Shown here: positions 31,662 through 56,449 of the stretch, one piece after another
How the letters are laid out: every line of letters starts with the position of its first letter
How positions within the stretch are numbered: the first letter of the stretch is position 1
Origin: an uncultured Gammaproteobacteria bacterium
Lineage (GTDB): Bacteria; Patescibacteriota; Microgenomatia; JALYQM01
Direction of reading: 5' to 3'
NCBI GenBank assembly: GCA_964403585.1
Contig: CAYOFQ010000001.1
Location: forward strand, 268,456 to 332,455
Length of the DNA: 64,000 bases
Translations under genes and position numbers: made by a program
The notes under the pieces: generated by a model
Told to the model about the DNA's origin: nothing
Seen by the model: only the letters and a program-made list of their open reading frames with translations
Database searches by the model: none

Positions 31662-31662
31662 T

Positions 31663-32421: not shown

Positions 32422-32474
32422 ATAACTATAATAAAGTAATTACAGTAAAGTGCAAGAAAATGTTTTTAGCTCAA

Positions 32475-42200: not shown

Positions 42201-44028
42201 AATCACTTCCAGTGCTCCACACCAGTTCACTGCTGCCGGCGACGTCGGTATTGCCTACGATTTACAATTCACAAACCAGACCGCATCGTATATTAAATCC
42301 AACGCGCCACTTATAATTGATGTTGGTGAATCCTTCGAAAGCAATGATCTAACCTTGCAGACATACAACAGCGGAGATATTAGCCTGGATACCGGCGCCA
42401 CCGGTTCTATTAATCTTCTTAACTCAGTTGCGTTCGGCTCTCAGATCGCCTTCACCGCTGCCGATACGACACCAGATGTCTCTGCGGGATCACACTTCAT
42501 CACCGCCGGAACCGCTACTATCAGTGATTTTGATGCCGGCACCTCCGGTACCCTTAAAGATGGTCAAATAATATTTATCGAATGTAACTCCGCGGTAACC
42601 TTTGACGTAACCGCTTCAGGGTTGAACGGCGGTTCTGCCGATCTCGCCTGTGGTGCCGGAGACATGACCACCTGGATGTATGACGGAACAGACTGGAACC
42701 TGATTGCCTGGGTCGATGACACCGATGCGCAAACCGGTGCTGACTTGGCCGAATGGTACGCCAGCAACGAAACATTAAACCCGGGCGAAGTAGTCTCTAT
42801 CGATAAAAATCAGCCCGGTGAAGCGTATGTCAAGAAAACGACTGCCGCCAAGGACTCAGCAGTTGTCGGTGTAGTCGCAACAAAGCCGGGTATTACCTTA
42901 GGTGAACCGGTTAACGGCAAGGCGTATGCAATCGCTTTGGCCGGACGCGTTCCGGTAAAAGTTTCCACCTCAAATGGACCAATCGAAAAAGGTGATTACT
43001 TAACCACTTCCGGATCCGCCGGCATCGCCACGAAAGCTACTTCTGCCGGACCAACTATCGGCAAAGCGTTAACTGCATACAATGGCTCCGGAACAGGCGA
43101 AGTTATCGTCTTCGTTAATGTCTCCTGGTTTGATCCCGATGCCTATCTTGCTTCACTGTCTAATGTAAATATTACTCCGAACAGCAGCACTGACAAATTT
43201 TCATTGGCCAATGCCGGTAACTTAATTTCGCGAATCGGTTTATTCTCTGACGCGGCAATAGGCAACCTCTCGACAGGATTCATTGATGCTAAGAAGATTT
43301 CACTCGATGGCACCAACATTATGGATCTCATTTCCAATACAACCCAGCAGGTCGCTCAATCTGCCGGAACATTTACGCAGGAAGACGTAAATTCCTTGCT
43401 CACTACTGCGTATCATCTCCAGACATCCGCCGATACGTTAGCTATAACCAAGAAGATGTTGGCCTACGCCAACGTTAACATCCAGGGTGATTTGGAAGTG
43501 TTTGGCCAAACCTTTATCAAAGGTAAGGCAACCTTTGAAGATGAGTCAGTATTTAATAAATTAGCCAGTTTTGTCTCGAACGCCGTGTTTAAAGGCAAAG
43601 TGTCATTCGAAGACCAGGTTGCCTTCAATAAAGATACCGCCGGCATAGCTATTATTGAAAAGAACAGCGACAAAGTTACCGTTATTTTCGATAAAGAATA
43701 CGACACTGTTCCACTTGTATCCGCAACTATGGTTCATGAAGGTGAAGCAAGCTCTTCGGCATTCCTGAAAACGTTTTATGTCTCTGAAAAAACTAAGAAA
43801 GGCTTCACCATTAAACTCGATACACCTCAATCGGAAGATGTTTCGTTTAACTGGATTGCCATCGCGGTAAGCGATCCTAAGATCAGCAAATCTTCCGACG
43901 CAACTCCTGCACCGTCAGTCAACCCGGTTGTCCAGGAAGGGGTAGATAAACTAATGAAAGAAGCAACCAAATCGGCACAAGTCAGTACTGCTACACAGAG
44001 TGCGCAGGCAAATACATCTACACCGTAA
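33247..44028 (+). CDS. giant (3593 aa) secreted/surface-anchored protein, Gly/Ser/Thr/Asn-rich with multiple internally duplicated ~90-130-aa modules and a distinct non-repetitive C-terminal ~450-aa domain
   Basis: One uninterrupted ORF. N-terminal signal anchor (ITILLTLGFVLITALVLGL). Three families of internal module repeats are conserved at the protein level. The C-terminal region (from about WVDDTDAQTGADLAEWY) changes composition to K/E/D-rich. Divergently transcribed from the pilin gene. Confidence 0.85.
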   Translation: MTKKITILLTLGFVLITALVLGLKQTGFARTVGTYISSAFLGQNVAPTTDAAKAKVASSGAVLGLDDEFYRSLEQINFNLPSFFNDYVNISGNLTVGGNTTLEKDATVSGSLAIDQDLTVRGQRINFGTATVTGGNLITALTAGSGIAVSTGTTPTISNSGVLSLQGRTGALALEAGDNIKIDGLKISAEVPDVPEVEVNTFKNFAVSGQSTLTASGEDDTFTFANGPGITITTNATNKTTTIGMIGTCSAGEVLKWNGVSNTWVCGNDAGSSGLGIINVEESDVVVSPTADTLDYNGNDFSLTEAPTGEINIAIDYSNSNITRKNVAETLTQSWNFSNGIQVSSLSTGVVQSNGSGVLSSSALNLAGGSSLITGVLPQANGGTGFSTYSTGDLIYASATDTLAKRSIGSNGQVLSVTGGLPVWSDVNALCATCVVTDPNATQVITPTDTAATGLSIAQIVGGTADVFSVTNNTGSTKYLQVNSSGNVSFSGNASVGGNLSVTGTSALTGNITAGGTISGLTGITSSGTITFSGLGTGVVQSNGSGVLSSTALNLAGGSSYVTGTLPQANGGTGFSTYTTGDIIYASAANTLSKRSVGTNGTVLTVSGGVPTWTTISGGSGGVCTDCIVNDPGSTQTITPTIATATGLTVAQAASGSVDIFSVTNNDGSSKFLQINSSGNIIASNLSGSGNRVLYTTAGGQVSALTDGGSNQVLTTNGSGTLSWTSLAGAGGVTGSGSNGLISFWTGTSTLSSNANFFWDDSNSRLGIGDITPAAALTVGSGDAFQVNSSGAIAAATGITSSGTIILSGLSTAGLVTNTSGGVLGTTATIGASYITADALDFTEFKDALTLDASTDIGVTGTNVFSITNSGTGNSLVVNDQASDTTPFVVDASGNVGIGVSSPGVKLDVSGQIRSTLDTTVADSGSSGASGALRLRYNSWTTGHGANLQFDIGSYDSAGNVIRSQLTNAGGSGISDLIFYGKDSTAVAQGTLSEYMRIEAGGNIGIGNTNPSYKLDIADSGTTSGIRGLNVAQTGAVSGTGYAGYFSKTGASTTNIGLYAEASGATNNYAAWFQGPTHYTRFTDGYLLDTSAANLYILDGVVFRGDLANDVSNWAIRTDFNGGTLELSTDQSGGTRNTNQVKLQADGTTYFGSGNIGIGDSSPASLFTVGSGDLFQVNSSGAIASATGITSSGTITLSGLSTAGLVTNTSGGVLGTTTTIGASYITADSLDFTEFKDAMTLDASTDIAAIGTNVFSLTNSGTGNSLVVNDQSSDTSPFIVDASGNVGIQTSTANDALDVAGNIDSSGYYKLAGTKILDLVNNGSLLVGHGAGNSIISDMDFNTLVGKDAGYSINDVGADSNTAIGYTSLYNNISGRSNVAVGLYAGGDLTSGNYNVFIGNSAGEGGTSASGSENVAIGYQSFLNFTSGVANAIFGYSSGQTITSGDYNTFLGSYIDIEDGTYSNSIGIGANAYIRSSNQLVIGGSGSSYINDAYIGGGIRSTSPQDLAINATGGQGSDIAGADLTLAGGKGTGSGLGGALIFSTAGAGSTGSTPNTLSERMRIDSSGNVNVGGDTTPNAQFTVGSTSQFQVNSSGAIAAATGVTSSGTITLSGLSTAGLVTNTSGGVLGTTSTIGASYITADSLDFTEFKDAMTLDTSTDIGVTGTNVLSVTNSGTGNSLVVNDQASDTTPFVVDASGFVGIGTSSPTNALDVGGKFVVNTTTTKAALGYTDTSLFSQTFGINGSLWLNGGIVLAGGSTITPQGGSTINIGGGNTVNINSGSIYTSGAGGNVGIGDTSPAALLTVGSGDLFRVNSSGAIAAATGIASSGTITFSGLSSGITSNGVCLNASNQLITCSYGGGTGTMNTFTAAGDSGGGQTITDNNTLSILGGTNGIDTVDSITDTITLNLDTTEIGSTTFGSGSGLTWTFDASAGTDPTIAFANNAITFTANSATFTGAITAPTSSNTINSLIINAGALSGVTGFSQASGAFTVNGSGAVALGTGTNNVSIGNSSGTFALTSSGGLNVTTGGALTGVASIDTISTSATAIGFAGAGTITSNTTSALTLDSGSSGTVNLGTGNNAKTINVGTGTAGNTINVGTDNTVADTIGIGSALDTVSVAGTTSILGATTINGSGSLATNIGTGTSTGTITIGRTTGTDLALNDSNWNISGAGAANFGSIGATTPGTGAFTTLSSTGATTIGNNSSTVAIDSSVWDISSAGVASGLTGISSSGTITFSGISSGTASNGVCVNASNQLITCSYGGGTMSSFNTGGDTGSGSIINGDTLVINGGTNGIDTALSGDTYTLNLDTTEIGTSTFGSGSGITWTFDAGATDPTLAFASDQITATAGTAVLSGTTTLTASSLSTLTTAATLGMASTSTLNCADCIDFDDMKDSMTIDAATDINLGANAFTIDLDSTGDFSIRDVTADIATFSDNGAISFTPTSGQGITNTIAGAGNFTVTTATGTQTFTSSVVSGTTTTSGFVFDATAINSGTGMYLTSDSITSGKLLQLATTGNTFTSGTILDVTTTSTSLTSGGLGSFDWSPGSSTTATGDLFSLNIGTNGNIGSIFNVKDSGTSVFSVTESAITANLPANFNAAGDVSFANNLALTNQTASYIRSNAPLYLEAGEIFESNDLTLRTYNSGQLVIDAAGGTNINSVSYIWPSSQAASSGYVLTNNGSGTLSWATAGSMSSFTAAGDTGSSQTISNSDTFSILGDTNGIDTVASATDTITLNLDTTEIGTTTFGSGSNLTWTFNSAGATDPTFTAGTGTLSYGLVDNTASAFTLAEGSNNYFRIDTTNSAPVVTLDTLEAGGTMNFGSSNFGRTINIGTGTGADTINIGTGATTADAITVGNTGVATTFTFNSGATTQTPMAFNLDALTTGTGLDFSLDGLTTGIGMKVDDNTGAGLSTGTMLYINSVSTALTTATNGGSLGYFNWNPGSSTTATGDLFRINIGSSGSTTGNLFNITDNGTSIFSVSETGITSSAPHQFTAAGDVGIAYDLQFTNQTASYIKSNAPLIIDVGESFESNDLTLQTYNSGDISLDTGATGSINLLNSVAFGSQIAFTAADTTPDVSAGSHFITAGTATISDFDAGTSGTLKDGQIIFIECNSAVTFDVTASGLNGGSADLACGAGDMTTWMYDGTDWNLIAWVDDTDAQTGADLAEWYASNETLNPGEVVSIDKNQPGEAYVKKTTAAKDSAVVGVVATKPGITLGEPVNGKAYAIALAGRVPVKVSTSNGPIEKGDYLTTSGSAGIATKATSAGPTIGKALTAYNGSGTGEVIVFVNVSWFDPDAYLASLSNVNITPNSSTDKFSLANAGNLISRIGLFSDAAIGNLSTGFIDAKKISLDGTNIMDLISNTTQQVAQSAGTFTQEDVNSLLTTAYHLQTSADTLAITKKMLAYANVNIQGDLEVFGQTFIKGKATFEDESVFNKLASFVSNAVFKGKVSFEDQVAFNKDTAGIAIIEKNSDKVTVIFDKEYDTVPLVSATMVHEGEASSSAFLKTFYVSEKTKKGFTIKLDTPQSEDVSFNWIAIAVSDPKISKSSDATPAPSVNPVVQEGVDKLMKEATKSAQVSTATQSAQANTSTP
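35590..35950 (+). repeat. giant-gene internal module repeat family A, copy 1 (FQVNSSGAIAAATGITSSGTI...LDFTEFKDA...NSLVVNDQASDTTPFVVDASGNVGIG)
   Basis: Protein-level repeat shared with copies at ~36753-37110 and ~37995-38360. DNA identity is only moderate, indicating old duplications. Confidence 0.7.
36753..37110 (+). repeat. module repeat family A, copy 2
   Basis: SGDLFQVNSSGAIASATGITSSGTITLSGLSTAGLVTNTSGGVLGTTTTIGASYITADSLDFTEFKDAMTLDASTDI...VVNDQSSDTSPFIVDASGNVGIQ. Confidence 0.7.
37995..38360 (+). repeat. module repeat family A, copy 3. A partial fourth copy lies at ~38660-38770.
   Basis: QFQVNSSGAIAAATGVTSSGTITLSGLSTAGLVTNTSGGVLGTTSTIGASYITADSLDFTEFKDAMTLDTSTDIGVTGTNVLSVTNSGTGNSLVVNDQASDTTPFVVDASGFVGIG. 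Confidence 0.7.
38821..39075 (+). repeat. module repeat family B, copy 1 (GGTNGIDTV...LNLDTTEIG.TTFGSGSGLTWTFDA). Copies 2 and 3 at ~40036-40270 and ~41322-41560.
   Basis: Three copies of an ~85-aa module, each preceded by a CxNASNQLITCSYGGG or similar junction. Confidence 0.65.
40861..41230 (+). repeat. module repeat family C, copy 1 (F(D/N)W.PGSSTTATGDLF..NIG...G..FN..D.GTS.FSV.E..IT...P..F.AAGDV......L.FTNQTASYI.SNAPL....GE.FESNDLTL.TYNSG). Copy 2 at ~42046-42420.
   Basis: Two ~120-aa copies with ~60% aa identity. Confidence 0.65.
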
Positions 44029-44097: not shown

Positions 44098-47000
44098 ATG
44101 AAGTTATTTAATAAGTCATCGCGCAGAAACATACGACTCCGCCTTATTGCAACAATACTTTGCATAGGTCTTATTTCAGGAATAGTCTGGTTACTACTAA
44201 ATCCCACCGAATCAGTTGCTGCTTGGTACGACGATTCGTATGCCTACCGTGCTAAACAAACCATCGGCAATACCAGCTCTGCTGACAGCAACAAAAAAGT
44301 AAAATTAGATATAGATACAGCCACGCTAATAACTGCTGGGAAAATGCAATCCGATTGCGATGATACTCGTTTCACCGATATTAATGGCAAGCAATTACAA
44401 TATTTTCTCGACTCTGCTGGAGGTGCGTGCAACGGCGCCTCCACTGACTACTACGTCTTACTTCCAACCATTAACGCCGGTACGACAATTATGTATATGT
44501 ACTATGGCAATTCCTTAGCCAACTCCGGATCACAATCGAGTCAATTCTCACAAGCTACTTTTTCACCGACCTCCGGACCTACTGCTGCAACCGAGGAGCA
44601 GGGGGCAGCGCCAAGGCTGTATTGGAAATTTGACGAAGGGCAAGGAACAAGCACTAATGATACGACCAAAAATAATAATACCGGCACTCTCGGAGGCTCT
44701 AATGCCGACCCCTCCTGGCAAACAGAAGATCAATGTGTAAGTGGAATATGTTTAAAATTCGACGGCTCTAATGATTATGTGTCACGTACATATAGCAGCG
44801 ATTCTGAGCTTGCACCGGGCACCGCCAGTTTTTCGGTGAGCGTTTGGTTTAGACATTCCACTGCAAATTTATCCGGAAATAACATGCTCATAACCAGAAG
44901 TGCGAGCGGAGTTGGCTACAAAGTATATATGAACAGTTCTGAACAGATGTGTTTCGGCGTCGATGATGTTACCGGATCATTCCCTTCCGACTCAGCCTGC
45001 TCGACAGCAGCATATAATGACTCACAGTGGCATTTCCTTGAAGCAGTGAAGTCGGGGACGTCATCGGTAACGCTATACATCGATGGTAATCAAGTGGCGC
45101 AGGACGCATCTTTAGCAGCAACAGGCTCGCTTTCGGCAAGCAATCCTACGTTGTATGTAGGCATCGATTCCGATGGTACGAGCACGCCGTGGGACGGTTT
45201 TATTGATGAATTTAAATACTACGATTCTGCTCGCAGTTCTGCACAGGTCCAAACGGATTTTTCAGCCAAAGGTTCAGTAGCAGGTAGTGCAGTTGCATTT
45301 GGCAATAATAAGAATACCAATTTGGATAGTGGATTGACTGGATATTGGAAGATGGACGAGTCCGCCGCAAACAGCTGTACTGGGGGGACTAATGATTCGT
45401 GTGATAGTTCAGGAAATGTGAAAGATTTAGCATGGTCAGGTACTACCACCAGCAGTTCTGGAAAATTCGGTAACGCGACTGCTTACGGCGGAACTAACGA
45501 TTATGCCAACGCAGGCAATATAAATAATATTACGGCATCAGATAGCCTTACTATTTCATTCTGGATATACAGAACTAATACTACAAGCGATCAATATCTT
45601 ATAGATAAGAAAAGTTCCGCTGCTGCTGCCGGCTCGGTAGGTTATTCTATATTGCAATACTCAACTGCCAACGGTGGGAATACGTGCCTATACGTATCCG
45701 ATGGAACAAATCAGTATGAAAATTGCACTGCCAATAACACTACCACAACAACCAGTACATGGGAGCACTTAATCTTTACTTTTGACCGATCTGGTGGAAC
45801 TACAAGTTCAACAATTTATAAAAACGGAACAAATGCAGAATTCTCAGTATACGAAGTAGGTAATCCGAGAACAGTAGGATCTGCCTCTAATTCGTTAGGA
45901 CTATGCTTTGGCACTCCGGCTGCCGCCGCAGGAGCATGCAATACTTCAGGTACACTTGAATTCACTGGAAGATTAGATGAAGTCAGAATGTATAACCGGT
46001 CACTATCGTGTAGTGAAGTGCTTTCTTTGTATGACTGGGGACCATACCCTGTAGGCTATTGGAATCTTGATGAACGAACCGGCACTACTGCAAATGATAC
46101 CAGCGGCAACCAAAACTCTGGAACACTTTCCAACACAACCTGGAAGGCTTGTAAAATTGGAGCATGCATAACTTCATCCATAGATGGCACGCAAAATATC
46201 ACTACGGTTACTGACCCCAGTAGTGGTATCCTCGATTTTTCCAATACCCAAAACTTCAGTTACGAAGCTTGGATAAAAGCAACCAATAAGGAAGACGTTA
46301 CTCATCCTATTCGAAAAGGTGGCACCAGTTCAAGTGTCGTAGGATATTATATGCAATTGGATACCGGAACAACCGCGACCTGTGCCTACACTGATGGGAA
46401 TGGCGTTGGCGGAGTAGACTCAACATCTTCGACCACTAATGTGCAGGACGGCAATTGGCATCATATTGCCTGCGTCATGGACAGAGATTCAACTGCATTT
46501 TCAATTTACGTTGACGGAAAACTCGAGGCTTCCGATACATCTCTAACTGAGGGGAGCGCCGCAAGTAATCCTAATAATTTAATCTTTGGTGAAACATCGG
46601 TATCAAGTGAGTTTGATGGCGGCATTGACGATGTCCGCATCTATAATTATTCCAGAACTGCTAAACAAATAGTGCAGGATATGAACGGTGGACTCCCTTC
46701 AGTTGGTGGAGTTGGTTCACCAGCCAATACTATAGCCTATTGGAATCTCGATGAAGGGCAGGGAACTACCGCCAATGATAAGTCCGGTCGGGGCAACTCG
46801 TTAACACTAAACACCTCCACGTCTGCCTGGACAACCAGCGGCAAATTTGCCAGCGCTTGGAACGGCTTAGGATCCAATTGGCTTACCCGCGCCGATGATG
46901 ATGATTTCGATTTTGCAGCTGCTGAAGATTTCTCCATCAGTTTATGGGTAAAGTCAGATAGTACTACCAACCCGAGTGGTGCCGAATATGTTTTAAGTAA

Positions 47001-48843
47001 ACTAGAATCAAGTGCAGGTTACAGAATACGTTTTAATACTAGTGGTCAAATCAGATTCAGTATTGATGACGACACGGCATATACTCCCGACGATGAGGTC
47101 ACTTCAACCGCTGATATTTATGATGCCGCTTGGCATAATGTCATAACGGTTAAAAATGGCACTTCCCGTATTGATCTTTATGTTGACGGTAATCTGGTTG
47201 CTACAGATACCAGTTTAGCCGCCACCGGGACACTTGCAAATGCGATCGCCTTGTATTTAGGCGATCGCAACGGGGTTGACGGCGGAGACGAATTTAACGG
47301 TGATATTGATGAGATTAAATTTTACCGATATGCGCTCAATGCGCAAGAAGTTAAGGCCGAGTTCAATCAGGGATCCTCACAGTCTATTGGCTCAGTTTCG
47401 ACTACTTCTACAGGAACAGGGGATAACTCAGCAGCGAGAGAATACTGTGTTCCGGGCGATGCTACGTCCTGCGCTGGTCCTGTTGGAGACTGGAAATTAG
47501 ACGAACGCACCGGCACTACAGCCAAAGACTCAAGTGGAAACGGTCTCTACGGAACATTGAATGGTACAACAACCTGGACGACTGGCAAAATTGGTGCATC
47601 TGTCAATTACACCAATACGTCAGGAGAATACATTGATATTGGTGACAATGCCTCACTTGATTTTGGGGCCTCAGCCGATTTTACACTTGAAGCCTGGGTT
47701 AACCGTGCAGCGGCAGTCGAACAGGATGCGATCATTGAAAAAAAGAACGTTACCGATTCCTGTTCAGCAGATCCCGGATATTCCCTTTATATTACTACTG
47801 CCGGTTTAGCCAAGTTCCGTGCCTGCGATGCCGCAGATAATGCCTACAATGTTGAATCTACATCTACGCTCACTAACGGAACATGGTTTCATGTTGTGCT
47901 GGTCTGGGATGATGACAGTAGTACCGGAACTAGAATGTATGTAAACGGAAAGAATGATACGGGAACCGTTTCCGGAACCATTACCTCGGTAGGAGATTTG
48001 TCTAATGCGCTTTCGCTAAGAATCGGCAGCGAATCGGATGGTGGAAAAGCTATGAATGGGAAACTGGATCAGGTAAAAATTTATAATTACGCGCGAACTC
48101 CTGCTCAAATTGCTTGGTCATATAATCAAGGAGGTCCAGTCGCCTGGTATAAATTTGACGAGTGCTCCGGCACAACCGCCAACGACGCTTCCGCTAACAG
48201 TAATACCGGCACTATTAGTGTTGGAAGTTCGGGAGCATATACTGCCATCGGAACCTGTAATTCAGGAACGTCAACCGAGGCCTGGAATGCCGGCTCTACC
48301 GGAAAGTTTAGCAGCAGTATCGCTCTTGATGACACTGACGATTATGTCGATCTCGGAGATCAGAGTGCCATGGAAAGTATTAGTCAGGCTTCCTGGACAT
48401 TCTGGACTAATCCGAGTGTTACCAATGCCTGTATTTTCTGTAAAGCCAATAGTGACGGCACGCAAAGTGCGTGGAGATTTACACCCGGAACCGGACTGCG
48501 TGCCTACCTTGCTTCAACCAGTACCAATTATGGGGAAACAGTCAAATCATATATTAATGGAAGTTGGGTCCACGCTGCAGTTATCTTTGATGGAACCCTA
48601 TCCGGGAATGCCAACAGATTAAAAATTTATCTGGATGGTAAAAGCGAACCACTGACCTTCTCAGGAACGATACCGGCTGCCACTTCTGCAACAACCAGCA
48701 ATGCACGGTTAAACTCATATTCCAATGGAAGCTCTTTCAGTAGATCTTTATATGATGATGTGCGAATGTACAACTATCCGTTAACCGCAGTCCAAGTACG
48801 AAACGTCTACAATGAGGGTAGTGCGGTCCGGCTGGGCCAATAA
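44098..48843 (+). CDS. large (1581 aa) secreted protein with N-terminal signal anchor and about six LamG_3 (concanavalin A-like lectin/glucanase) domains
   Basis: Recurrent LamG_3 signatures: W(K/N)(F/L)DE..G T(T/S)..D.SGN.N.GTL; Cys-pair segments; the strand motif W(H/F)H(V/I)A; and C-terminal motifs DEV(R/K)(I/M)YN.(A/S)L(S/T)..(E/Q)(I/V). N-terminal TM is RLIATILCIGLISGIVWLLL. Confidence 0.8.
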   Translation: MKLFNKSSRRNIRLRLIATILCIGLISGIVWLLLNPTESVAAWYDDSYAYRAKQTIGNTSSADSNKKVKLDIDTATLITAGKMQSDCDDTRFTDINGKQLQYFLDSAGGACNGASTDYYVLLPTINAGTTIMYMYYGNSLANSGSQSSQFSQATFSPTSGPTAATEEQGAAPRLYWKFDEGQGTSTNDTTKNNNTGTLGGSNADPSWQTEDQCVSGICLKFDGSNDYVSRTYSSDSELAPGTASFSVSVWFRHSTANLSGNNMLITRSASGVGYKVYMNSSEQMCFGVDDVTGSFPSDSACSTAAYNDSQWHFLEAVKSGTSSVTLYIDGNQVAQDASLAATGSLSASNPTLYVGIDSDGTSTPWDGFIDEFKYYDSARSSAQVQTDFSAKGSVAGSAVAFGNNKNTNLDSGLTGYWKMDESAANSCTGGTNDSCDSSGNVKDLAWSGTTTSSSGKFGNATAYGGTNDYANAGNINNITASDSLTISFWIYRTNTTSDQYLIDKKSSAAAAGSVGYSILQYSTANGGNTCLYVSDGTNQYENCTANNTTTTTSTWEHLIFTFDRSGGTTSSTIYKNGTNAEFSVYEVGNPRTVGSASNSLGLCFGTPAAAAGACNTSGTLEFTGRLDEVRMYNRSLSCSEVLSLYDWGPYPVGYWNLDERTGTTANDTSGNQNSGTLSNTTWKACKIGACITSSIDGTQNITTVTDPSSGILDFSNTQNFSYEAWIKATNKEDVTHPIRKGGTSSSVVGYYMQLDTGTTATCAYTDGNGVGGVDSTSSTTNVQDGNWHHIACVMDRDSTAFSIYVDGKLEASDTSLTEGSAASNPNNLIFGETSVSSEFDGGIDDVRIYNYSRTAKQIVQDMNGGLPSVGGVGSPANTIAYWNLDEGQGTTANDKSGRGNSLTLNTSTSAWTTSGKFASAWNGLGSNWLTRADDDDFDFAAAEDFSISLWVKSDSTTNPSGAEYVLSKLESSAGYRIRFNTSGQIRFSIDDDTAYTPDDEVTSTADIYDAAWHNVITVKNGTSRIDLYVDGNLVATDTSLAATGTLANAIALYLGDRNGVDGGDEFNGDIDEIKFYRYALNAQEVKAEFNQGSSQSIGSVSTTSTGTGDNSAAREYCVPGDATSCAGPVGDWKLDERTGTTAKDSSGNGLYGTLNGTTTWTTGKIGASVNYTNTSGEYIDIGDNASLDFGASADFTLEAWVNRAAAVEQDAIIEKKNVTDSCSADPGYSLYITTAGLAKFRACDAADNAYNVESTSTLTNGTWFHVVLVWDDDSSTGTRMYVNGKNDTGTVSGTITSVGDLSNALSLRIGSESDGGKAMNGKLDQVKIYNYARTPAQIAWSYNQGGPVAWYKFDECSGTTANDASANSNTGTISVGSSGAYTAIGTCNSGTSTEAWNAGSTGKFSSSIALDDTDDYVDLGDQSAMESISQASWTFWTNPSVTNACIFCKANSDGTQSAWRFTPGTGLRAYLASTSTNYGETVKSYINGSWVHAAVIFDGTLSGNANRLKIYLDGKSEPLTFSGTIPAATSATTSNARLNSYSNGSSFSRSLYDDVRMYNYPLTAVQVRNVYNEGSAVRLGQ

Positions 48844-49150
48844 ACTACGTATTATTATCGTGGTACTCTGTGAAACCACACGAAGGTTTCCTGAGCTTCA
48901 GACCTAACCAACTTTCCGGTATTGATCAATCTTTATTGAAAAATTTTACCCAAAGCTCGGGTAACCTGATCGCCTAGGTAAAAATACGGACATTGCTGTT
49001 GTTGGTCGGAGCGCGCTAATGTAAATCTAAAATGTTTGTAAACGGCAAAGGTCTTACCTCTTACAAGTACGGACACTCCATAACGAAAACAGTTCGGTTC
49101 GCTTCGGCCAGTAATACGCTGGCTGGTTTTATTGCCTCTCGACTTGAACT

Positions 49151-49181
49151 CTGCTACTATGAGACGTACTACAGGTAGTAT
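49151..49181 (+). promoter_or_regulatory. second copy of the conserved promoter-like leader (CTGCTA - 19 nt - TAGTAT), upstream of LamG paralog 2
   Basis: See the 44055-44085 feature. The two copies differ at 3-4 positions only. Confidence 0.4.
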
Positions 49182-49194
49182 CAAAGCTGTCCAA

Positions 49195-52100
49195 ATGAAA
49201 TTACTCCGTTTATCAGGTAAAAAAAGAAGATTCCGGATTCTTGCTGCAGTCCTGTGTCTTGCGCTTATTGCGGGAATAAGCTGGACGTTGTTTCATCCTG
49301 CGGGTACTGATGCCGCCTGGTACGACGACAGTTATTCGTTCCGAATTAAGGAAACGATCGGAAATACCGGAGCAGCGACCGGCAACCAGAAAGTTAAGTT
49401 CGATATCGATACCGCTACTTTAATAACTGCCGGTAAAATGCAGAGCGACTGTGACGATACACGTTTTACCGACATTAACGGAAAAAGTCTCAAGTATTTT
49501 TTGGACTCGGCCGGTGGCGCGTGTAACACGGCTTCCACCGATTACTATGTTTTTGTGCCAACCATCAATGCTGGGAATACGGTTATCTACGTATATTACG
49601 GAAACCCGACCGCAACTTCCGGTTCGCAATCCAGTCAGTTTTCGCAGTCCACTTTTTCACCGACTTCAGGCCCAACTGCGGCTACCGAGGAACAGGGCCG
49701 GGCTCCGGTGCTCTACTGGAAATTTGATGAAGGAAGTGGTGCAACAGCACAGGATAGTACCAAAAACAATAATGATGGCACGATCACGGGTGCTGCCAGA
49801 AAAACGGACGATCTGTGTAAGGCCGGAAAATGCCTCAGTCTCGATGGAACCGATGATGTAATATCCCGTGCTGACGATTCTGATGTTGATTTCGCAGCCG
49901 CGGATAATTTTACGATTCAAGGATGGTTTAAACACGGCGAACAGACAACCGGACAGGATATTATTACCGCCAAGCAGGATGTAGGTGCCGGAGGTAACGG
50001 TCCGACAAAAATTGACGATCCCGGCGATCCGGGGGCACAGGAAGGTTCAGGACGAAGAGTAGTTCGAACAAGCACTGGTACCTTATATTCCATCTTAAAT
50101 GACGGTGGAAGTTGTGAAGTCTGGAAATCTGCCACTGGCAGTACCTGGACTGAACAGGATAGTGCCAATAATCCCTCCTGCAATTCATTTATGAGTGTCG
50201 CAGTAGCCGTCGACAGTACAGATGTACTTCATATCACGTACTCTTCCGGAACAGATTTTAAGTATGTTACTTTCTCTACATCTACCGATACTTTTGGAGG
50301 TGCTGAGATAATCGCCTCCACCTCAGACAGCACTTATGACATGGCCATCGCAGTAGACTCAAATAATAAACCACATGTTATCTTTTCAGCAGGTGATCAG
50401 TTCGATGGATTTGCCTGTGGTGAAGATATAAATTATGGCAATAAGGTCATAGGTTCTTCATGGACAACCATTAGCCTGGATACTGCACTTACGGGAGGAC
50501 AATCGAGTTGCCATAACTTTCACGGTGCAAGTATCGCGATCAGCGAAGATAACATCCCTGAACTTACCTATATCAGTAATACAACCGGGCTGATTGCCAA
50601 AGTTGGAAACCAAAACAACCCTGCATCGTTTTCAACAAAAACGGTCGATGCAAGCGTAAGCAGCACCTCGTTAGAATCGTCAATTGTTATTGATAGTTCT
50701 GGTAATACCTGGATTGGCTATTCTGATGGAACTACTAATTACGCAACCTTAGTTAAACATAATGATGCCGATGCCTGGGCAACCTGGCAAACAGCCGTAA
50801 CAAACTCAAATGTTGGGAATGAACCCTCTGTAGCTGCCAACGGCTCAGATATTTACATTCTCTACACTGATGAAAATGCGGATATTAAATACGATCGCTA
50901 CAATGGCTCGACGTGGTTAGGAGAAACTAACCTGGCAACCGGCACCTATGAAAACGTCCAGGTCCGCTGGAGTTACTTAAACAACGCCTCGTACTCAACG
51001 TATGGCATAGACTATCTGTATAACGACTTTACTGACCTTTACTGGAATTCAATTTCCATTTCGGGCGGCGGCGGTGGTTCGGGAACAGATGGTACCGGCT
51101 ACAAAGTAGTCATGGAAGCAGATGGAGATATTACGTTCGGCATCGACGACGATGTATCAGCTTTTCCTGAAGATTTCGTCACCTCAACATCGGCCAACTA
51201 CGACGACAACAAATGGCATATGGTTACGGCAGTCAAGACAGGCACTACAAACATTAAACTCTATATCGATGGAATACTCATCGGTTCGGATGCAAGTATC
51301 TCTTCGACCGGAACGCTCGCCAATTCAGGTTCACTGTATGTCGGTTTAGACCGGGATGGAACCAGTAATGCCTTTGCCGGATTCCTTGATGAATATAAAA
51401 TTTACCGGTATGCTCGTTCCGAAGCGCAAATAAAAGCAGATTTTTCCGGTAGATCTACAGTTGCCGGTACGAGTGGTGTGTTTGGACAGGATCCAAACAC
51501 CACGTTAAGTAACGGTTTGGTGGGGTATTGGAAATTAGACGAAAATACCGGTACCAGCACCACGGATAGCAGTGGCAACGGCTTCACCGGCACCTTAACC
51601 AACAGTCCAACCTGGAGCGCCACAGGAAAATTTGGTAGTGCGGTGAGCTTTGATGGAGCGGGAACTACTAACAGTGATGTTATTAAAGTGGGCGATCAAG
51701 CAGCTCTGGAACTACAAACTTTTACCATTAGCGCCTGGATAAGTAGATCGGGAACCTGTTTTTTCAGCATTTGTCCAATCTTCGCTAAAGGTATGTCAGG
51801 GTTTACGGGTTACGCATTAGAGGTGAAGGACGTTGGCAGTGGCGTATATAAAGCAACGGTAAGTTTGAACGATACAACCCAACAAGTTTCAGGTGCAACA
51901 ACATTATCTACCGGTACTTGGTATCATCTGGCCGCTTCTGTGAACGGTAGCAAAATCAAATTATATGTGAACGGTGCCCTAGATGCAGAAGCAGACCAAA
52001 CAGCTACTCCGGCCTTCGGGAGTGAAGAAGCTACGATTGGCAACGGGAATAGTAACTTAGATTTAACCTTTAACGGAAAAATCGATGATGTACGAGTATA

Positions 52101-54915
52101 CAACCGGGAACTGAACGCAACTGAAATCTCCGCGCTCTATGATTGGGCACCCAGCCCGGTATTGTATCTGCCACTCGACGAAAAAACTGGCACCTCTACT
52201 GTAACTGACATATCCGGTAGCGGCTATACCGCAACCATGAATAGCTTTAGCTCAGATGACTGGAGAACCGGAAAATATGGTGGAGCGCTTAATTTTGATG
52301 CGACCAACAATTACATCTCAGTTGCCGACAACACGGTATTGGACATGCCTAATAATGCAGTAACGCTGGAAGCCTGGATAAAACCACATGGCTTAACCGG
52401 TTTAGATAATGGAATAATAATCAAGCCCGGGCAGTATGAACTTCGTTTTAATAGTGCGGGTAAGCCTGCAGCGAAAGTTTTAGGTGGTACTTCGTGTGGT
52501 GGTGGAGGTGCGACAGGTGTCACTGCTACCACCGCATCGACCCTGGATACCTGGTATCACGTTGCCTGGACGTATGATGGGAGCACTAACAAACTATATA
52601 TCAACGGAGCCCTTGATACGAGTTCTTCGGAAACCTGTACAATTCCAAATACAACCAATGCGCTGGAAATCGGCAGACAGTCGAACTATTTCAACGGTTC
52701 ATTTGATGAAATTAAAGTATACAACTACGTGCGTACCGCAAAACAAATAGTGGCGGATATGAACGGCGGCCACCCGAATGTCGGTTCACCGGTTGGTTCA
52801 GCTTTAGGGTATTGGAAATTCGACGAAGGGACCGGCACAACGGTAAATAACAGTGGCAGCGCTGGCTCAACATTGAATTTAACGTTTGGAGCCTCAACTG
52901 CCACGCCCAGCTGGTCAAACAGTGGAAAATTCAACAAAGCAGTGAACTACGATGGTACGAATGATCACACATATATTACTGACAACGCCATGCTGGAACC
53001 GGGAACCAACGATTTTTCTGTTTCCGGTTGGTTCAAACTCAATCAACTACCCAGCACCTTAGCACATGATGCGAAAGTAGTCTTTAAAGCCCACAACTCT
53101 GACCCATGGGAAGGTTACGAAGTATATATAGATACAGACGATAAAGCCAAATTTACTTTCGCTTCAGCAGCCAGTACCTGGCATACTGCCAGTGATACGC
53201 AAACAGTGAGCCTTAATACCTGGTATCATTTTGCCGCAACCAAAGTGGGAACACTTACTAAGTTATACATTAATGGCAAATTAGTAGGTTCGAATACTGC
53301 TTCATCCTCTAACGTTTTCAACTCAGATGCTTCATTTCTGGTCGGCGCCGCAGGGTCTGAAGCACTGGATGGACTTATTGATGAAGTACGATATTACAAT
53401 TTTGCTTTAAATGATACAGAAGTAACATCAGACTATAATCAGGGGAAGGCTGCCGTTTTAGGCGCTACATCAACCGCTTCCGATGGTGTAACGGTAAGTA
53501 ATGCCGCAGATCGGAGTTATTGTATTCCGGGGGACACCTCTGCTTGCTCCGCCCCGGTCGGTGAGTGGAATTTTGACGAGGGAAGTGGAACCTCGGCATT
53601 TGACACAAGTGGAAACAATAACACCGGAACGCTAACTAATTCCCCAACTAGAGTACGAGGTAAAATAGGCAAAGCACTTGATTTAGCACAATCCGGCAGT
53701 AAATACGTATTAATCCCGGATAATAATGCCATAGACAATAGTGGTGCCATGAGTATCGAAGCCTGGATCAAGCCTACCTCTACAGACTTTGATGGAACGT
53801 TTGCCGACTATGTTGCAAAAAGTGACGGGACAGGGGGAAGTGTGGCTTACGCAGCGTCAGTACTCAGCAGCAGTGTATTATCTTTCTATTGGGCGGCAGC
53901 TAATAATTTTGAGGAATACCGCACTTCCGGAACTACCTTCCTTACCGCCGGACAATGGGCCCATGTTGTCCTTACCCGTAACTCGGCACTCAATTCGGCG
54001 ACAGCTTACATAAATGGCATTAAATATACCATGACCTTAAATGGTGCTACCGATACAGCACCGGGTGGACAAACAGATGATCTTGCTATTGGGAGAACAG
54101 GTAATGCCAACCGGCAATATTTTGACGGTGAAATAGATCAGGTTAAAATCTACGATTATGAGCGATCACAAGCACAAGTAGCCTGGAGCTACAACCGTGG
54201 CGGGCCGCTCGCGTGGTGGAAATTCGATGAATGTAGCGGCACCACAGCCAACGACTCTTCGGGAAACACACTAAATGGAACTATCACCATCGCAACCGGA
54301 ACACAAACATCCACCGGAACATGCAATTCGGGTACCGGATCAGAAGCATGGTCCAACGGAACAACAGGTAAATATAATTCCGCGTTAAGTATAGATGGTA
54401 ATGGAGACTATGTCACTGTTTCAGATAACGCTAAACTGGACATCACCGGCGATTTCACACTCAGTGCCTGGGTCAACCGCAGCTCAAATGGAAGTACCTA
54501 CCTCATATCAAAAACAAACGAAAGTACGACCGGAGGGTACGCATTGTTAGCCGGAAACGGTGGCGAAGTCTATTGCCGTACCAATAACGGAACCTCAAAT
54601 ACGGATTCAACTTCAGTGACTGGGCTGGTTTCATCAGGTACGGGATGGCACCACGTTGTTGCAGTACGCAGTGGCACTTCCTGTAAAGTGTATGTCGACG
54701 GAAATGATCGAACCAGCAGTACAAACACCCACACCACACTCACAGCCAATGCCCTGGACTTAAAAATTGGCGCGCGACCGGATAATACTCAAATGCTGAC
54801 GGGTTTGATCGATGACGCCCGTGTCTATAATTATGCCCTCACTGCAATACAAATAAAAACGTTATATAACGAAAACTTCACCACACGTTTCGGTCCTTTA
54901 ACCGGATCACCATAA
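49195..54915 (+). CDS. large (~1907 aa) paralogous LamG_3-repeat secreted protein with an inserted beta-propeller-like (Asp-box-like) region
   Basis: The first ~175 aa are nearly identical to the 44098 protein (AAWYDDSY.(Y/F)R.K(Q/E)TIGNT...KMQSDCDDTRFTDINGK...). Multiple LamG_3 motifs. The final domain (AWWKFDECSGTTANDSSGN...) is homologous to the final domain of the paralog. aa ~300-650 carry repeated strand motifs (SATGSTWT, LHITYSSG, AIAVDSNNKPHVIFS, SIAISEDNIPELTYIS, SIVIDSSGNTWIGYSDG, SDIYILYTDE) suggesting a beta-propeller. Start chosen at ATG 49195 by homology. The track start at 49132 is a TTG. Confidence 0.8.
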   Translation: MKLLRLSGKKRRFRILAAVLCLALIAGISWTLFHPAGTDAAWYDDSYSFRIKETIGNTGAATGNQKVKFDIDTATLITAGKMQSDCDDTRFTDINGKSLKYFLDSAGGACNTASTDYYVFVPTINAGNTVIYVYYGNPTATSGSQSSQFSQSTFSPTSGPTAATEEQGRAPVLYWKFDEGSGATAQDSTKNNNDGTITGAARKTDDLCKAGKCLSLDGTDDVISRADDSDVDFAAADNFTIQGWFKHGEQTTGQDIITAKQDVGAGGNGPTKIDDPGDPGAQEGSGRRVVRTSTGTLYSILNDGGSCEVWKSATGSTWTEQDSANNPSCNSFMSVAVAVDSTDVLHITYSSGTDFKYVTFSTSTDTFGGAEIIASTSDSTYDMAIAVDSNNKPHVIFSAGDQFDGFACGEDINYGNKVIGSSWTTISLDTALTGGQSSCHNFHGASIAISEDNIPELTYISNTTGLIAKVGNQNNPASFSTKTVDASVSSTSLESSIVIDSSGNTWIGYSDGTTNYATLVKHNDADAWATWQTAVTNSNVGNEPSVAANGSDIYILYTDENADIKYDRYNGSTWLGETNLATGTYENVQVRWSYLNNASYSTYGIDYLYNDFTDLYWNSISISGGGGGSGTDGTGYKVVMEADGDITFGIDDDVSAFPEDFVTSTSANYDDNKWHMVTAVKTGTTNIKLYIDGILIGSDASISSTGTLANSGSLYVGLDRDGTSNAFAGFLDEYKIYRYARSEAQIKADFSGRSTVAGTSGVFGQDPNTTLSNGLVGYWKLDENTGTSTTDSSGNGFTGTLTNSPTWSATGKFGSAVSFDGAGTTNSDVIKVGDQAALELQTFTISAWISRSGTCFFSICPIFAKGMSGFTGYALEVKDVGSGVYKATVSLNDTTQQVSGATTLSTGTWYHLAASVNGSKIKLYVNGALDAEADQTATPAFGSEEATIGNGNSNLDLTFNGKIDDVRVYNRELNATEISALYDWAPSPVLYLPLDEKTGTSTVTDISGSGYTATMNSFSSDDWRTGKYGGALNFDATNNYISVADNTVLDMPNNAVTLEAWIKPHGLTGLDNGIIIKPGQYELRFNSAGKPAAKVLGGTSCGGGGATGVTATTASTLDTWYHVAWTYDGSTNKLYINGALDTSSSETCTIPNTTNALEIGRQSNYFNGSFDEIKVYNYVRTAKQIVADMNGGHPNVGSPVGSALGYWKFDEGTGTTVNNSGSAGSTLNLTFGASTATPSWSNSGKFNKAVNYDGTNDHTYITDNAMLEPGTNDFSVSGWFKLNQLPSTLAHDAKVVFKAHNSDPWEGYEVYIDTDDKAKFTFASAASTWHTASDTQTVSLNTWYHFAATKVGTLTKLYINGKLVGSNTASSSNVFNSDASFLVGAAGSEALDGLIDEVRYYNFALNDTEVTSDYNQGKAAVLGATSTASDGVTVSNAADRSYCIPGDTSACSAPVGEWNFDEGSGTSAFDTSGNNNTGTLTNSPTRVRGKIGKALDLAQSGSKYVLIPDNNAIDNSGAMSIEAWIKPTSTDFDGTFADYVAKSDGTGGSVAYAASVLSSSVLSFYWAAANNFEEYRTSGTTFLTAGQWAHVVLTRNSALNSATAYINGIKYTMTLNGATDTAPGGQTDDLAIGRTGNANRQYFDGEIDQVKIYDYERSQAQVAWSYNRGGPLAWWKFDECSGTTANDSSGNTLNGTITIATGTQTSTGTCNSGTGSEAWSNGTTGKYNSALSIDGNGDYVTVSDNAKLDITGDFTLSAWVNRSSNGSTYLISKTNESTTGGYALLAGNGGEVYCRTNNGTSNTDSTSVTGLVSSGTGWHHVVAVRSGTSCKVYVDGNDRTSSTNTHTTLTANALDLKIGARPDNTQMLTGLIDDARVYNYALTAIQIKTLYNENFTTRFGPLTGSP

Positions 54916-54933: not shown

Positions 54934-56439
54934 ATGAAATCAAAAATTATCCTTGGGGTGCTATTTCTCTTTGCACTTATCAGTCTTTTTCTATATATTT
55001 TCTATCGCCAATACGCGTTCCCTGAGCACTCCATCCAGTTTTCTATTAACGAACATGAGGCTCAGGCTAAAGCCGAAATCCTCGCCAGTCAACTGGAATT
55101 TGGTATTCCTAACTACCGCAAAGTTACGCTTTTTGAAATAGACGATACCGCTAAGAGTTATTTGGAGCGCGAGCTGGGCCCCAAAGAAACCGGTGAACTG
55201 GCTCGTTCACAGGTGAACTTATGGTATTTCACCACCAGACTATTCCAAACGCAGCAGCAGGAAGAACTCTATGTCTCATATGCCCCTGACGGCAGATTGG
55301 TATATTTCTCGCACGAACTGGACGAAAATTTAAAAGGAGCGGCACTCTCCAAAGAGCAGGCCAGACAAGTAGCACGTCGGTTTTTAAGCTCCAACTGTTC
55401 ACTGTGCCAAAGAACAAATTTTCCCGATGGTTGGGATGAAGTACAGTACTCCGGGACTTCACGCAAAAACAGGCTCGACCATTCGTTTGTTTTTGAACGC
55501 CAGAATTATGCACTCAAGGAGGCCAGACAGCGGGTGAGTGTCGAACTGGCCGGAGATAAGGTAATCGGTTTTAATGAGTACCTCAAAGTTCCCCGGCAGT
55601 GGATATCCGAATTCCGAAAAGAGAAATCATACAATGATGTCGCTCAACTTGTGGCCGAACTGATCAGCACATTTTGTATCACACTTCCGCTGATCGTAAT
55701 TTTCTTCAAAAAGTTTAAGGGGCGAAAGTTACTTTTTCGTGTTCCATATATTGCTGCTATTGTTCTGAGTGCGATCAGTCTCTCCGAAATAGTGAATAGC
55801 TTTTTCCAGTATTATTTCAACTATCCCACTACCCAGAGTCCTGTTACCATCCTGGTTTTAATAGTCTTTGGGCTCGCCCTAACCTGGATGTTTACCTTCA
55901 TAACCAACCAGGCCACCCTGGCGGTAGCCGAAGGCTTGTTCCGGGAAGTTTTTCCAAAAGAAAAGCACATCATGTTTACCGTAAAAAACATGTTGCAACT
56001 CCCGTCCGTTACAAAAGGAATCTTTGTGGGAGCGTGTGTGGGAATTATTTTCTTCCTCTATGAATTACTTTATTACTTCTTGGGACGACAAATCGGGTTC
56101 TGGGTCCCGGCAGAAATTAACTATAGTGACGCGTTTAATTCGATTGCCCCATGGTTGTACCCACTGACTATCGGGTTACTGCCGGCAGTGACCGAAGAAG
56201 TCACCTATCGTTTATTCGGCATCTCCCTGTATACAAAATTTATCTCCCATTGGTTAAAAAATCCAAAACATGCGATTATTTTGGCTTCGGTCTTATCTTC
56301 ATTCACTTGGTCATTTCTGCACAGCGCCTATCCTCAAATGCCGTTCTTTGTGCGTGGAATTGAATTGGGCGTGGTTGGGTTTGCCTTCAGTTGGCTTTTT
56401 TTACGGTATGGAATTTTATCTTCTATTGCCGCTCTTTAA
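54934..56439 (+). CDS. membrane protein: N-terminal signal anchor + extracytoplasmic domain + polytopic C-terminal domain with CPBP (CAAX protease/Abi)-like motifs
   Basis: C-terminal TM region has TEEVTYRLFG (EExxxR motif 1) and, about 25 aa later, SFTWSFLHSAY (F/WxxxH-like motif 2). No clear motif 3. N-terminal TM is IILGVLFLFALISLFLYIF. Confidence 0.4.
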   Translation: MKSKIILGVLFLFALISLFLYIFYRQYAFPEHSIQFSINEHEAQAKAEILASQLEFGIPNYRKVTLFEIDDTAKSYLERELGPKETGELARSQVNLWYFTTRLFQTQQQEELYVSYAPDGRLVYFSHELDENLKGAALSKEQARQVARRFLSSNCSLCQRTNFPDGWDEVQYSGTSRKNRLDHSFVFERQNYALKEARQRVSVELAGDKVIGFNEYLKVPRQWISEFRKEKSYNDVAQLVAELISTFCITLPLIVIFFKKFKGRKLLFRVPYIAAIVLSAISLSEIVNSFFQYYFNYPTTQSPVTILVLIVFGLALTWMFTFITNQATLAVAEGLFREVFPKEKHIMFTVKNMLQLPSVTKGIFVGACVGIIFFLYELLYYFLGRQIGFWVPAEINYSDAFNSIAPWLYPLTIGLLPAVTEEVTYRLFGISLYTKFISHWLKNPKHAIILASVLSSFTWSFLHSAYPQMPFFVRGIELGVVGFAFSWLFLRYGILSSIAAL

Positions 56440-56449
56440 TGCCTTACAG

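Follow-up and report, generated by a model that had tools for sequence, protein, structure and literature searches.

Tandem DUF2341-LamG giants in a probable Patescibacteria-type genome, one with a predicted beta-propeller nested in its first LamG domain

Two collinear giants

A 64-kb stretch of DNA from an uncultured bacterium (contig CAYOFQ010000001.1, positions 268,456 to 332,455, assembly GCA_964403585.1; hereafter the window) carries two consecutive giant open reading frames, ORF1 and ORF2, at 44098-54915. The original prediction, made from the letters of the DNA, had described them as LamG_3-repeat proteins sharing a Cys-containing module, and this description holds. ORF1 has 1581 amino acids (aa) and ORF2 1906 or 1918 aa, depending on the start codon. 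Laminin_G_3 (PF13385, gathering score 27.6 bits) matches six stretches in each protein, with 408 bits (E 2e-123) in ORF1 and 492 bits (E 3e-149) in ORF2, and the motif KMQSDCDDTRFTDINGK...GGACN is found in both. DUF2341 (PF10102, gathering score 23.4 bits) scores above its cut-off at aa 86-149 of ORF1 (25.2 bits) and aa 85-148 of ORF2 (34.9 bits). The limits of the LamG domains were taken from a hidden Markov model (HMM) built on the intact LamG1 domains of relatives (hmmsearch), which delimits six domains in ORF1 and six in ORF2. Matches of ORF2 to PF02973 and PF22925 fall within these domains, outside the propeller insert described below. The features of the two genes are as follows, with ORF2 residues here and throughout numbered in the 1906-aa form that starts at ATG 49195.

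44098-48843, plus strand: ORF1, 1581 aa, with signal or anchor, DUF2341 and six Laminin_G_3 domains (ORF call, Pfam, LamG1 HMM)
44098-44217, plus strand: ORF1 signal peptide or signal anchor, aa 1-40, ...SVA/AW (read from the sequence)
44218-44610, plus strand: ORF1 DUF2341 module, aa 41-171, with the Cys pair C87 and C111 (Pfam PF10102)
44611-48828, plus strand: ORF1 array of six LamG domains, aa 172-399, 415-646, 651-864, 879-1095, 1127-1345 and 1346-1577
49104-49136, plus strand: terminator-like hairpin and T-run in the ORF1-ORF2 spacer (consensus pattern match only)
49159/49195-54915, plus strand: ORF2, 1918/1906 aa; the open frame begins at 49132
49312-49704, plus strand: ORF2 DUF2341 module, aa 40-170 (Pfam PF10102 and alignment)
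49705-49992, plus strand: N-terminal half of ORF2 LamG1, aa 171-266, HMM positions 2-94
49993-51087, plus strand: nested seven-bladed beta-propeller predicted in ORF2, aa 267-631 (AlphaFold2, Foldseek)
50128-50148, plus strand: Asp-box-like motif SATGSTW, aa 312-318, blade 1
50356-50463, plus strand: invariant cluster D388, H394, Y414 and N416 (plus W423) in blade 3, a candidate functional site (conservation)
51088-51474, plus strand: C-terminal half of ORF2 LamG1, aa 632-760, HMM positions 94-219
51520-54873, plus strand: ORF2 LamG2-LamG6, aa 776-983, 987-1192, 1204-1425, 1454-1669 and 1670-1893

The public gene call places the ORF2 start at ATG 49159 (1918 aa, identical to representative P0226), while homology to ORF1 begins at ATG 49195. 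TTG 49132 is disfavoured as a start because the terminator-like hairpin and its T-run span 49104-49136. This hairpin, located in a spacer of 289-352 nucleotides (nt), suggests that ORF2 may be transcribed separately from ORF1.

ORF1, ORF2 and a 3593-aa fibre-like protein encoded directly upstream (the giant) each have one N-terminal hydrophobic helix. In ORF1, the region of aa 1-40 is the sole hydrophobic 19-mer window, and its signal would be cleaved at SVA/AW. Neither a further transmembrane segment (hydrophobicity scan), nor an LPXTG motif or C-terminal hydrophobic segment of the kind used for sortase anchoring, nor a prepilin motif (G/FxxxE; PF07963, TIGR02532; Pfam, NCBIfam and sequence) was found in any of the three. 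ORF1 and ORF2 have no match to HemolysinCabind or related Pfam families of RTX repeats, and neither contains a twin-arginine (Tat) motif or a GH16-type ExDxxE motif. Because of the single N-terminal helix, and as other transmembrane segments, LPXTG, prepilin motif and RTX repeats are lacking, we infer that all three proteins are exported by the Sec route and are then either anchored by their N-termini or released.

By BLASTP, ORF1 and ORF2 are 60% identical over aa 1-273 and 35% identical over the other 1351 aa, residue 274 of ORF1 pairing with residue 636 of ORF2. The N-terminal ~175 aa had been called almost identical. They do hold the most conserved part of the pair, the DUF2341 module (ORF1 aa 41-172), but the module reaches only 82% identity at the protein and about 70-75% at the DNA level, and the signal region just 41%. 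The middles have diverged as described, yet all six LamG domains still align one to one and in the same order, with 35-49% identity. The final LamG domain, for which homology had been pointed out, is indeed homologous (35%) but no better kept than those in the middle; the bodies are evenly diverged.

Several measures show that the duplication is old. In a 20-codon block of the module, 19 residues are identical, and 13 of these 19 are encoded by different codons. By the Nei-Gojobori method, the proportion of synonymous differences (pS) in the module is 0.87, which means saturation, at a nonsynonymous distance (dN) of 0.14, compared with a dN of 0.5-0.7 in the LamG body. Thus, the module is under strong purifying selection in comparison with the diverged body, and its 82% protein identity at 70-75% DNA identity, together with the saturated synonymous sites, implies an old event. 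Recent gene conversion is ruled out by the pS of 0.87. An assembly artefact in which one copy was read twice, which the original prediction had raised against itself, is ruled out by the DNA identity of only 70-75% in the best-conserved module. The suggested dN/dS comparison gave 0.15-0.26 where it could be measured; in most domains the synonymous distance (dS) is infinite by Jukes-Cantor, and this saturation makes the ratio uninformative as a test of diversification. Of the "duplicated, diversifying surface lectin/adhesin pair" that had been proposed, a duplicated and exported LamG_3 pair therefore stands, but the word "diversifying" is unsupported.

A propeller inside LamG1 and its relatives

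The insertion noticed in the second protein and estimated at about 350 aa measures 365 aa (ORF2 aa 267-631, window 49993-51087). It sits inside LamG1 and not between two domains, because the LamG1 HMM splits into two complementary ORF2 matches, positions 2-94 at aa 171-266 and positions 94-219 at aa 632-760. A Gly-rich linker, GGGGGSGTDGTG, closes the insert. An AlphaFold2 model (mbfcd6f6ba001) calculated from an alignment of 20 sequences, the insert and its 19 closest homologs, is all-beta with 28 strands, a mean pLDDT of 88 and a pTM of 0.89, and it confidently predicts a propeller of seven four-stranded blades. The propeller that had been suspected from repeated strand motifs is thereby supported by structure prediction. 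In the model the N- and C-termini are adjacent, with the N-terminal strand apparently closing blade 7. In a second model (m5c10ffaa9920) the DUF2341 module was predicted with confidence, and the N- and C-terminal halves of LamG1 reached pLDDT values of about 85-93 and 80-95, respectively.

Among structures in the PDB, Foldseek found the closest folds in the seven-bladed Photorhabdus lectins PLL, PHL and PLL2-5 (query TM-score, TMq, 0.60-0.65; E about 1e-11; probability 1.0; 10-15% identity). Weaker matches were the glycoside hydrolase (GH) 145 enzyme BT3686 (TMq 0.56-0.59), ulvan lyases (0.50-0.56) and six-bladed sialidases including GH33 (about 0.5). The best match in BFVD was the protein A0A6J5QA63 of an uncultured member of the Caudovirales (TMq 0.83, 30% identity), followed by gp424, gp425 and gp427 of Bacillus phage G. 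PHROGs gave no match for the insert, and Pfam assigned no family to the insert alone even at E <= 10, so that the proposed search with BNR and sialidase HMMs came out negative. Membership in the BNR/sialidase family is unsupported by this search and by the seven blades. A distant relationship to the BNR superfamily is nevertheless plausible from the remote homologs P0011 and P0020, which carry BNR_4/BNR_2 Pfam matches.

The Asp-box-like element reported for the insert exists as SATGSTW at aa 312-318, but it is degenerate, being one residue shorter than SxDxGxTW and without the Asp, and it is the sole such motif in the insert; in homologs its place is taken by STDGSSW or SADGSSW. Four residues of blade 3, D388, H394, Y414 and N416, are 97-100% conserved over 180 propeller domains, which points to a single functional site, a candidate for binding or catalysis. 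No Arg or Glu is invariant in this set, the best conserved Arg residues being R286 and R290 of the first strand (78-87%).

The first 20 homologs of the insert were all of 627 aa or less, and an insertion unique to ORF2 was considered; metagenome and representative-library searches then found the same architecture elsewhere and the idea was abandoned. An exhaustive search of the representative library yielded 709 representative clusters at E <= 1e-30, of which the 136 top-listed representatives, leaving out those fetched in earlier searches, were classified. The combination of DUF2341, LamG and propeller occurs in 12 of the 136 (ORF2 itself as P0226, plus 11 others), and six more have LamG and propeller with DUF2341 undetected. 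The remainder consists of 29 proteins of at most 450 aa, many of which start directly with the propeller, 35 of 451-999 aa, and 54 other proteins of at least 1000 aa, many with several matched stretches.

Three kinds of setting stand out. The architecture of ORF2 recurs in three metagenome loci (L085, L086 and L089), and L089 repeats the whole arrangement of the window, with a 3119-aa giant followed by a 1951-aa protein of DUF2341, a LamG1 split by the propeller, and five further LamG domains. Free-standing propeller proteins with signals are encoded on cellular contigs; at L079, such a gene directly follows that of a 2488-aa giant, and the C-terminus of this giant shows homology to the C-terminal ~440 aa of the window giant. 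Finally, small homologs are encoded on phage-like contigs together with terminase, tape-measure, endolysin, Gp80 and pectate-lyase-like tailspike genes, and one on an IMG/VR viral contig. The phage-like contigs with small signal-less homologs (L081-L084, L101/L103) also have many glycosyltransferase and methyltransferase genes, and L081 encodes a Laminin_G_3 protein at 19919-21098.

The point of insertion differs among members of the DUF2341-LamG family. In L085, L086, L089 and several representatives the propeller enters LamG1 at HMM position ~26-31, in ORF2 and P0287 at position ~94, and in P0257 and P0297 a later LamG domain at position ~65. In P0236 and P0262 it lies between DUF2341 and LamG1 or inside DUF2341. 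P0200 and L088 (6608-10798) have three tandem propellers at the early LamG1 site (~26-31), after DUF2341. As judged from these differing insertion points, the propeller behaves as a mobile module that has entered the family repeatedly, at four or more different sites. A partial protein on an Omnitrophota-labelled contig (P0001) has its propeller flanked on both sides by near-repeats "...ALSQ...W.GISVDSSNQ", and it looks as if the propeller were nested there in yet another repeated host domain.

Family and gene neighbourhood

When one genome per species was scanned for the conserved N-terminal peptides, 296 relatives were confirmed, and the locus statistics given here cover 77 listed loci of these. 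Loci with informative names belong mostly to Roizman-, Davies-, Woese- and Shapirobacteria, WWE3, Komeilibacteria, Saccharibacteria or the "Patescibacteria group", with a few DPANN archaea. Many others have the uninformative labels of metagenome-assembled genomes ("uncultured Gammaproteobacteria"). Named protein matches agree with this spread in Patescibacteria. Going by these relatives, an indirect criterion, the window most likely comes from a Patescibacterium. The best relatives are ~57% identical in the N-terminal region, and proteins with this module mostly have 1500-1900 aa. About 15 of the 77 loci have such genes in tandem, as pairs or triples, and copy number ranges from one to three. 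Of 16 adjacent pairs, the window pair counted, 13 show higher conservation in the N-terminal module than elsewhere (for instance 93% versus 42% at L058 and 74% versus 41% at L057); a conserved module with a diverged body is a trait of the family. None of the 77 genome loci has a nested propeller, which only a minority of the DUF2341-LamG family possesses. Some LamG_3 relatives have prepilin N-termini (P0070, P0073), and the LamG arrays match phrog_8510, a "virion structural protein" (E 1e-64).

Judged by its sequence, the pair itself is thus an ordinary member of a widespread, uncharacterised family. Proteins of this family are routinely annotated as "DUF2341 domain-containing protein" or "LamG domain-containing protein" and are mentioned in general terms in the literature (PMC11809585, PMC13059738). 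The claim that the arrangement is not a described system therefore applies to the cluster of giant and DUF2341-LamG genes, for which we found no open-access paper, but not to the family. What the present description adds is the nested propeller at variable sites, its sharing with phage-contig proteins, and the repeated occurrence of a giant next to DUF2341-LamG genes.

The genes directly ahead of ORF1 are the following.

33247-44028, plus strand: fibre-like giant, 3593 aa, T/G/S-rich, one N-terminal hydrophobic helix
32475-33104, minus strand: prepilin-type protein, 209 aa; Pfam N_methyl and NCBIfam IV_pilin_GFxxxE above cut-off
31663-32421, minus strand: membrane protein, 252 aa, with a signal, an exported stretch and two C-terminal transmembrane helices

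The giant ends 70 nt before ORF1, and Pfam gives just a weak H_lectin match for it. Homologs of it (phmmer, E <= 1e-5) are present in 22 of the 77 loci; those listed lie on the same strand, most of them ahead of a DUF2341-LamG gene. Upstream sequence of at least 3 kb is available for 41 loci; in 21 of them the next gene upstream, in the same orientation, encodes a protein of at least 700 aa, and 13 of these 21 proteins are homologs of the window giant.

The prepilin-type gene is divergent to that of the giant and might possibly link the neighbourhood to type IV pili. The exported stretch of the 252-aa protein is 44% identical over 84 aa to aa 3203-3286 of the giant, and the protein may be a membrane partner of the fibre. 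Its transmembrane helices weakly resemble F0 subunit c (E 7e-4) and its gene occupies the atpE position of an ATP synthase operon; PHROGs gave no match for it. L008 has a homolog of it close to an ORF that resembles ATP synthase beta. The operon in the window (26895-33104, minus strand) is of the F type and encodes the beta, gamma, alpha and delta subunits and a b-like protein of 212 aa. A gene for subunit a was not recognised next to it, and the prepilin-type gene is found there instead. At L078, the operon has the usual order a-c-b-delta-alpha-gamma-beta-epsilon.

Further away, a run of surface-glycan genes (877-14670, plus strand) encodes a GT2 glycosyltransferase, two methyltransferases, a DegT aminotransferase, a GNAT protein, a 1132-aa AftD-like GT-C protein and PMT_2, and includes two large ORFs (742 and 688 aa) without a Pfam match. 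Downstream of ORF2, 54934-58288 (plus strand) encodes two paralogous multi-pass DUF4901 (YcdB/YcdC) membrane proteins whose ORFs overlap by 170 nt, possibly through a misplaced second start or a frameshift, the first alone having an Rce1-like CAAX-protease domain. A 306-aa protein with a transmembrane helix, a long Pro/Ser/Thr-rich linker and CBM96 (59370-60290, plus strand) is likely another surface glycan binder near the cluster. The window also encodes alanyl-tRNA synthetase (AlaRS), Nramp and, downstream, a DHH phosphoesterase, an EngB-like GTPase and uracil-DNA glycosylase (UDG). The content of housekeeping and glycan genes identifies it as chromosomal. Proteins exactly matching ORF1 and the ATP synthase beta subunit are encoded on a public contig of 1.57 Mb, and the beta subunits of close relatives (P0076 on a 236-kb and P0078 on a 96-kb contig) are 85-87% identical. 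The downstream DUF4901/CAAX, DHH and CBM96 genes were considered as parts of the same system and discarded, as they are not syntenic in related loci. Neither tRNA genes nor Rfam families at gathering threshold were found in the 64-kb window.

Interpretation and comparison with known systems

We consider the pair to be exported multi-lectin adhesins that combine a conserved docking module with variable binding parts and serve in the attachment of the cell, and we assign this reading a probability of roughly 0.55. A lectin or adhesin role is the most plausible one for both proteins. ORF1 and ORF2 would be old tandem paralogs of a DUF2341-LamG family typical of Patescibacteria (candidate phyla radiation, CPR), each exported through its N-terminal Sec-type signal or anchor and exposing a chain of six lectin-like LamG beta-sandwiches at the cell surface. 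The near-constant DUF2341 module could be the common docking or anchoring part, with the cell envelope, the upstream giant or a pilus-like structure as candidate partners, and the diverged LamG arrays might provide different binding specificities. The propeller of ORF2 would project from a loop of the split LamG1, which it can enter without breaking the host domain because its N- and C-termini adjoin. It most likely acts as a receptor- or glycan-recognition module, as the same family occurs in free-standing secreted proteins, in other giants and in phage-contig proteins, and it might possibly cleave glycans. All genes together would then allow the cell to attach to a partner surface.

Published work on other systems fits this reading. 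In RTX adhesins it is typically a split domain from which the ligand-binding domain projects (PMC12077191, PMC10865825), the tip adhesin proposed for haloarchaeal fimbriae, TafC, is formed by a LamG domain (PMC11821415), and large surface proteins with ConA-like domains have been proposed as candidates for host recognition in Patescibacteria (PMC13059738, PMC11809585).

Several observations weigh against it. Sequence searches gave no PDB match for DUF2341, the propeller profile or ORF1. The conservation in the propeller is concentrated in one blade, unlike the repeated inter-blade sites of the PLL lectins, and resembles more a single active or binding site, so that an enzymatic role is conceivable. 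The second model, m5c10ffaa9920, has a pLDDT of only 66 overall, its alignment having held flank homologs with the propeller region unaligned, and Foldseek aligned only ~130 columns of it, mostly to lectin-like jelly-rolls (clostridial neurotoxin domains and pentraxin). An uncleaved N-terminal anchor would put the propeller near the membrane and away from the distal tip, an unusual place for a binding module. Moreover, only about half of the informative loci (21 of 41) have an upstream giant, and the partnership with the giant is thus not obligatory.

In a bolder version of the adhesin reading, the giant and one to three DUF2341-LamG proteins form a dedicated, previously undescribed host-attachment apparatus of Patescibacteria. 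DUF2341 would dock interchangeable receptor-binding proteins on a common fibre or anchor, and specificity would be re-tooled by divergence of paralogs and by splicing the mobile, phage-shared propeller into different LamG loops. We regard this version as tentative and rather unlikely. If it were true, the apparatus would be a cellular analogue of the tail-fibre and receptor-binding-protein cassettes of phages. If the general adhesin reading is right, DUF2341 would be suited to work on localisation and partners, and the LamG domains and the propeller (D388/H394/Y414/N416) to ligand screens. If that reading is wrong, the pair is one more case of a common type of large exported protein. Host recognition by ultra-small episymbiotic bacteria is largely unknown beyond type IV pili, and the locus presents a recurring candidate set of a conserved DUF2341 docking module, a diverging lectin array and a phage-shared nested propeller.

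The principal alternative, which we judge unlikely, holds that the proteins are accessories or tips of a type IV pilus-like filament, DUF2341 joining them to the pilus and LamG and propeller forming a pilus-borne adhesin. DUF2341 has been linked to type IV pilus-like systems (PMC4858521, PMC10133366, PMC11809585): it has been placed in archaeal type IV pilus loci as a putative tip adhesin (PMC4858521), and a DUF2341 gene in the epd pilus locus of Methanococcus was repeatedly struck in a transformation screen (PMC10133366). The prepilin gene at 32475-33104 that adjoins the cluster and the prepilin N-termini of P0070 and P0073 are consistent with such a role. However, ORF1 and ORF2 themselves have neither an N_methyl match (Pfam, NCBIfam) nor GFxxxE, PilB, PilC, PilM and PilT are absent among the window ORFs scanned, and what is conserved next to the genes is the fibre-like giant, not a set of pilins.

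There is an equally small chance that the two proteins are exported glycan-degrading enzymes, with the propeller as glycoside hydrolase or lyase and the LamG domains, in the role of carbohydrate-binding modules, supplying it with host wall or capsule substrate. Invariant D388, H394, Y414 and N416 within a single blade over 180 domains would suit an active site, the fold matches include GH33 sialidases, GH145 BT3686 and ulvan lyases, homologs on phage contigs are encoded beside tailspike-like pectate-lyase and endolysin genes, and LamG_3 is part of the ConA-like lectin/glucanase superfamily. Non-catalytic lectins are the best fold matches, though, and the propeller has no Pfam family at E <= 10. 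An Arg triad is not evident in the conservation table, in which R286 and R290 reach 78-87%. Furthermore, ORF1 has no propeller at all, and the GH16-type ExDxxE is missing from both proteins.

Structural envelope proteins, similar to S-layers or sheaths and without specific ligand recognition, are an improbable third explanation. Such a role would agree with the very large exported beta-sandwich arrays, the glycosylation gene set and T/G/S-rich giant nearby, and the wide occurrence of the family in Patescibacteria. A copy number of one to three, however, fits recognition modules better than a lattice, and so do paralog bodies that diverge strongly behind a constrained N-terminus and a phage-shared mobile propeller that has been inserted repeatedly. 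The remaining explanation, prophage or phage-derived tail-fibre genes (or an N-terminal similarity due to the assembly artefact refuted above), is highly improbable, since the phrog_8510 match of the LamG arrays and the propeller homologs on phage contigs are set against housekeeping neighbours (ATP synthase, AlaRS, EngB-like GTPase, UDG, Nramp), signal or anchor helices on ORF1 and ORF2, and the absence of capsid, terminase and integrase genes among the window ORFs scanned.

If ORF1 and ORF2 are indeed adhesins, the RTX adhesins (PMC12077191, PMC10865825) are an instructive comparison. They likewise consist of a long string of beta-sandwiches in which one domain is interrupted by a complete, independently folding domain. 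This interrupting domain is their ligand-binding part, to which the ORF2 propeller would correspond by the split of LamG1 seen at the sequence level. Unlike RTX adhesins, ORF1 and ORF2 have no detected RTX repeats or type I secretion signal, their export signal is N-terminal and not C-terminal, and the host domain in ORF2 is a LamG domain instead of an Ig-like repeat. The organism is also unlike the hosts of RTX adhesins in that it is most likely a monoderm-like Patescibacterium. A similar comparison applies to TafC of the haloarchaeal Tat-fimbriae (NF052521; PMC11821415), whose LamG domain is the proposed outward-facing adhesive tip. The LamG parts match it with E 1e-47 (162 bits) and 9e-81 (272 bits), but these scores are far under the 410-bit cut-off and only profile positions ~148-364 are matched; in contrast to TafC, ORF1 and ORF2 lack a Tat motif and a TafA-like donor-strand domain.

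For the propeller, three groups of proteins come into question. The Photorhabdus lectins PLL, PHL and PLL2-5 (PDB 5c9l, 5mxe, 6rfz, 8q81 and others) have seven blades and a size similar to that of the insert. However, identity is only 10-15%, their TM-score is compatible with generic propeller similarity, and the invariant residues of the insert lie in one blade whereas the lectin sites are repeated between blades. The BNR/Asp-box sialidase-like propellers (BNR_2 PF13088, BNR_4 PF15892, GH33) share with the insert the repeated strand motif "xAIDSxxxxH", but the insert has seven blades instead of six, no canonical SxDxGxTW and no evident Arg triad. The phage propeller proteins include the closest predicted structure overall (A0A6J5QA63; also gp424, gp425 and gp427 of Bacillus phage G), and the small phage-contig homologs are encoded among tail-module genes. 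Unlike ORF2, these proteins lack signal peptides and do not form part of LamG arrays, and their receptor-binding role is putative.

The closest counterparts of the pair as a whole are the DUF2341-LamG giants of Patescibacteria/CPR and DPANN. With 1500-1900 aa, they have the same order of signal or anchor, DUF2341 and about six LamG_3 domains, and as in the window, tandem paralogs are common and an upstream giant is frequent. Compared with these proteins, ORF1 shows no difference in kind, and ORF2 adds the nested propeller.

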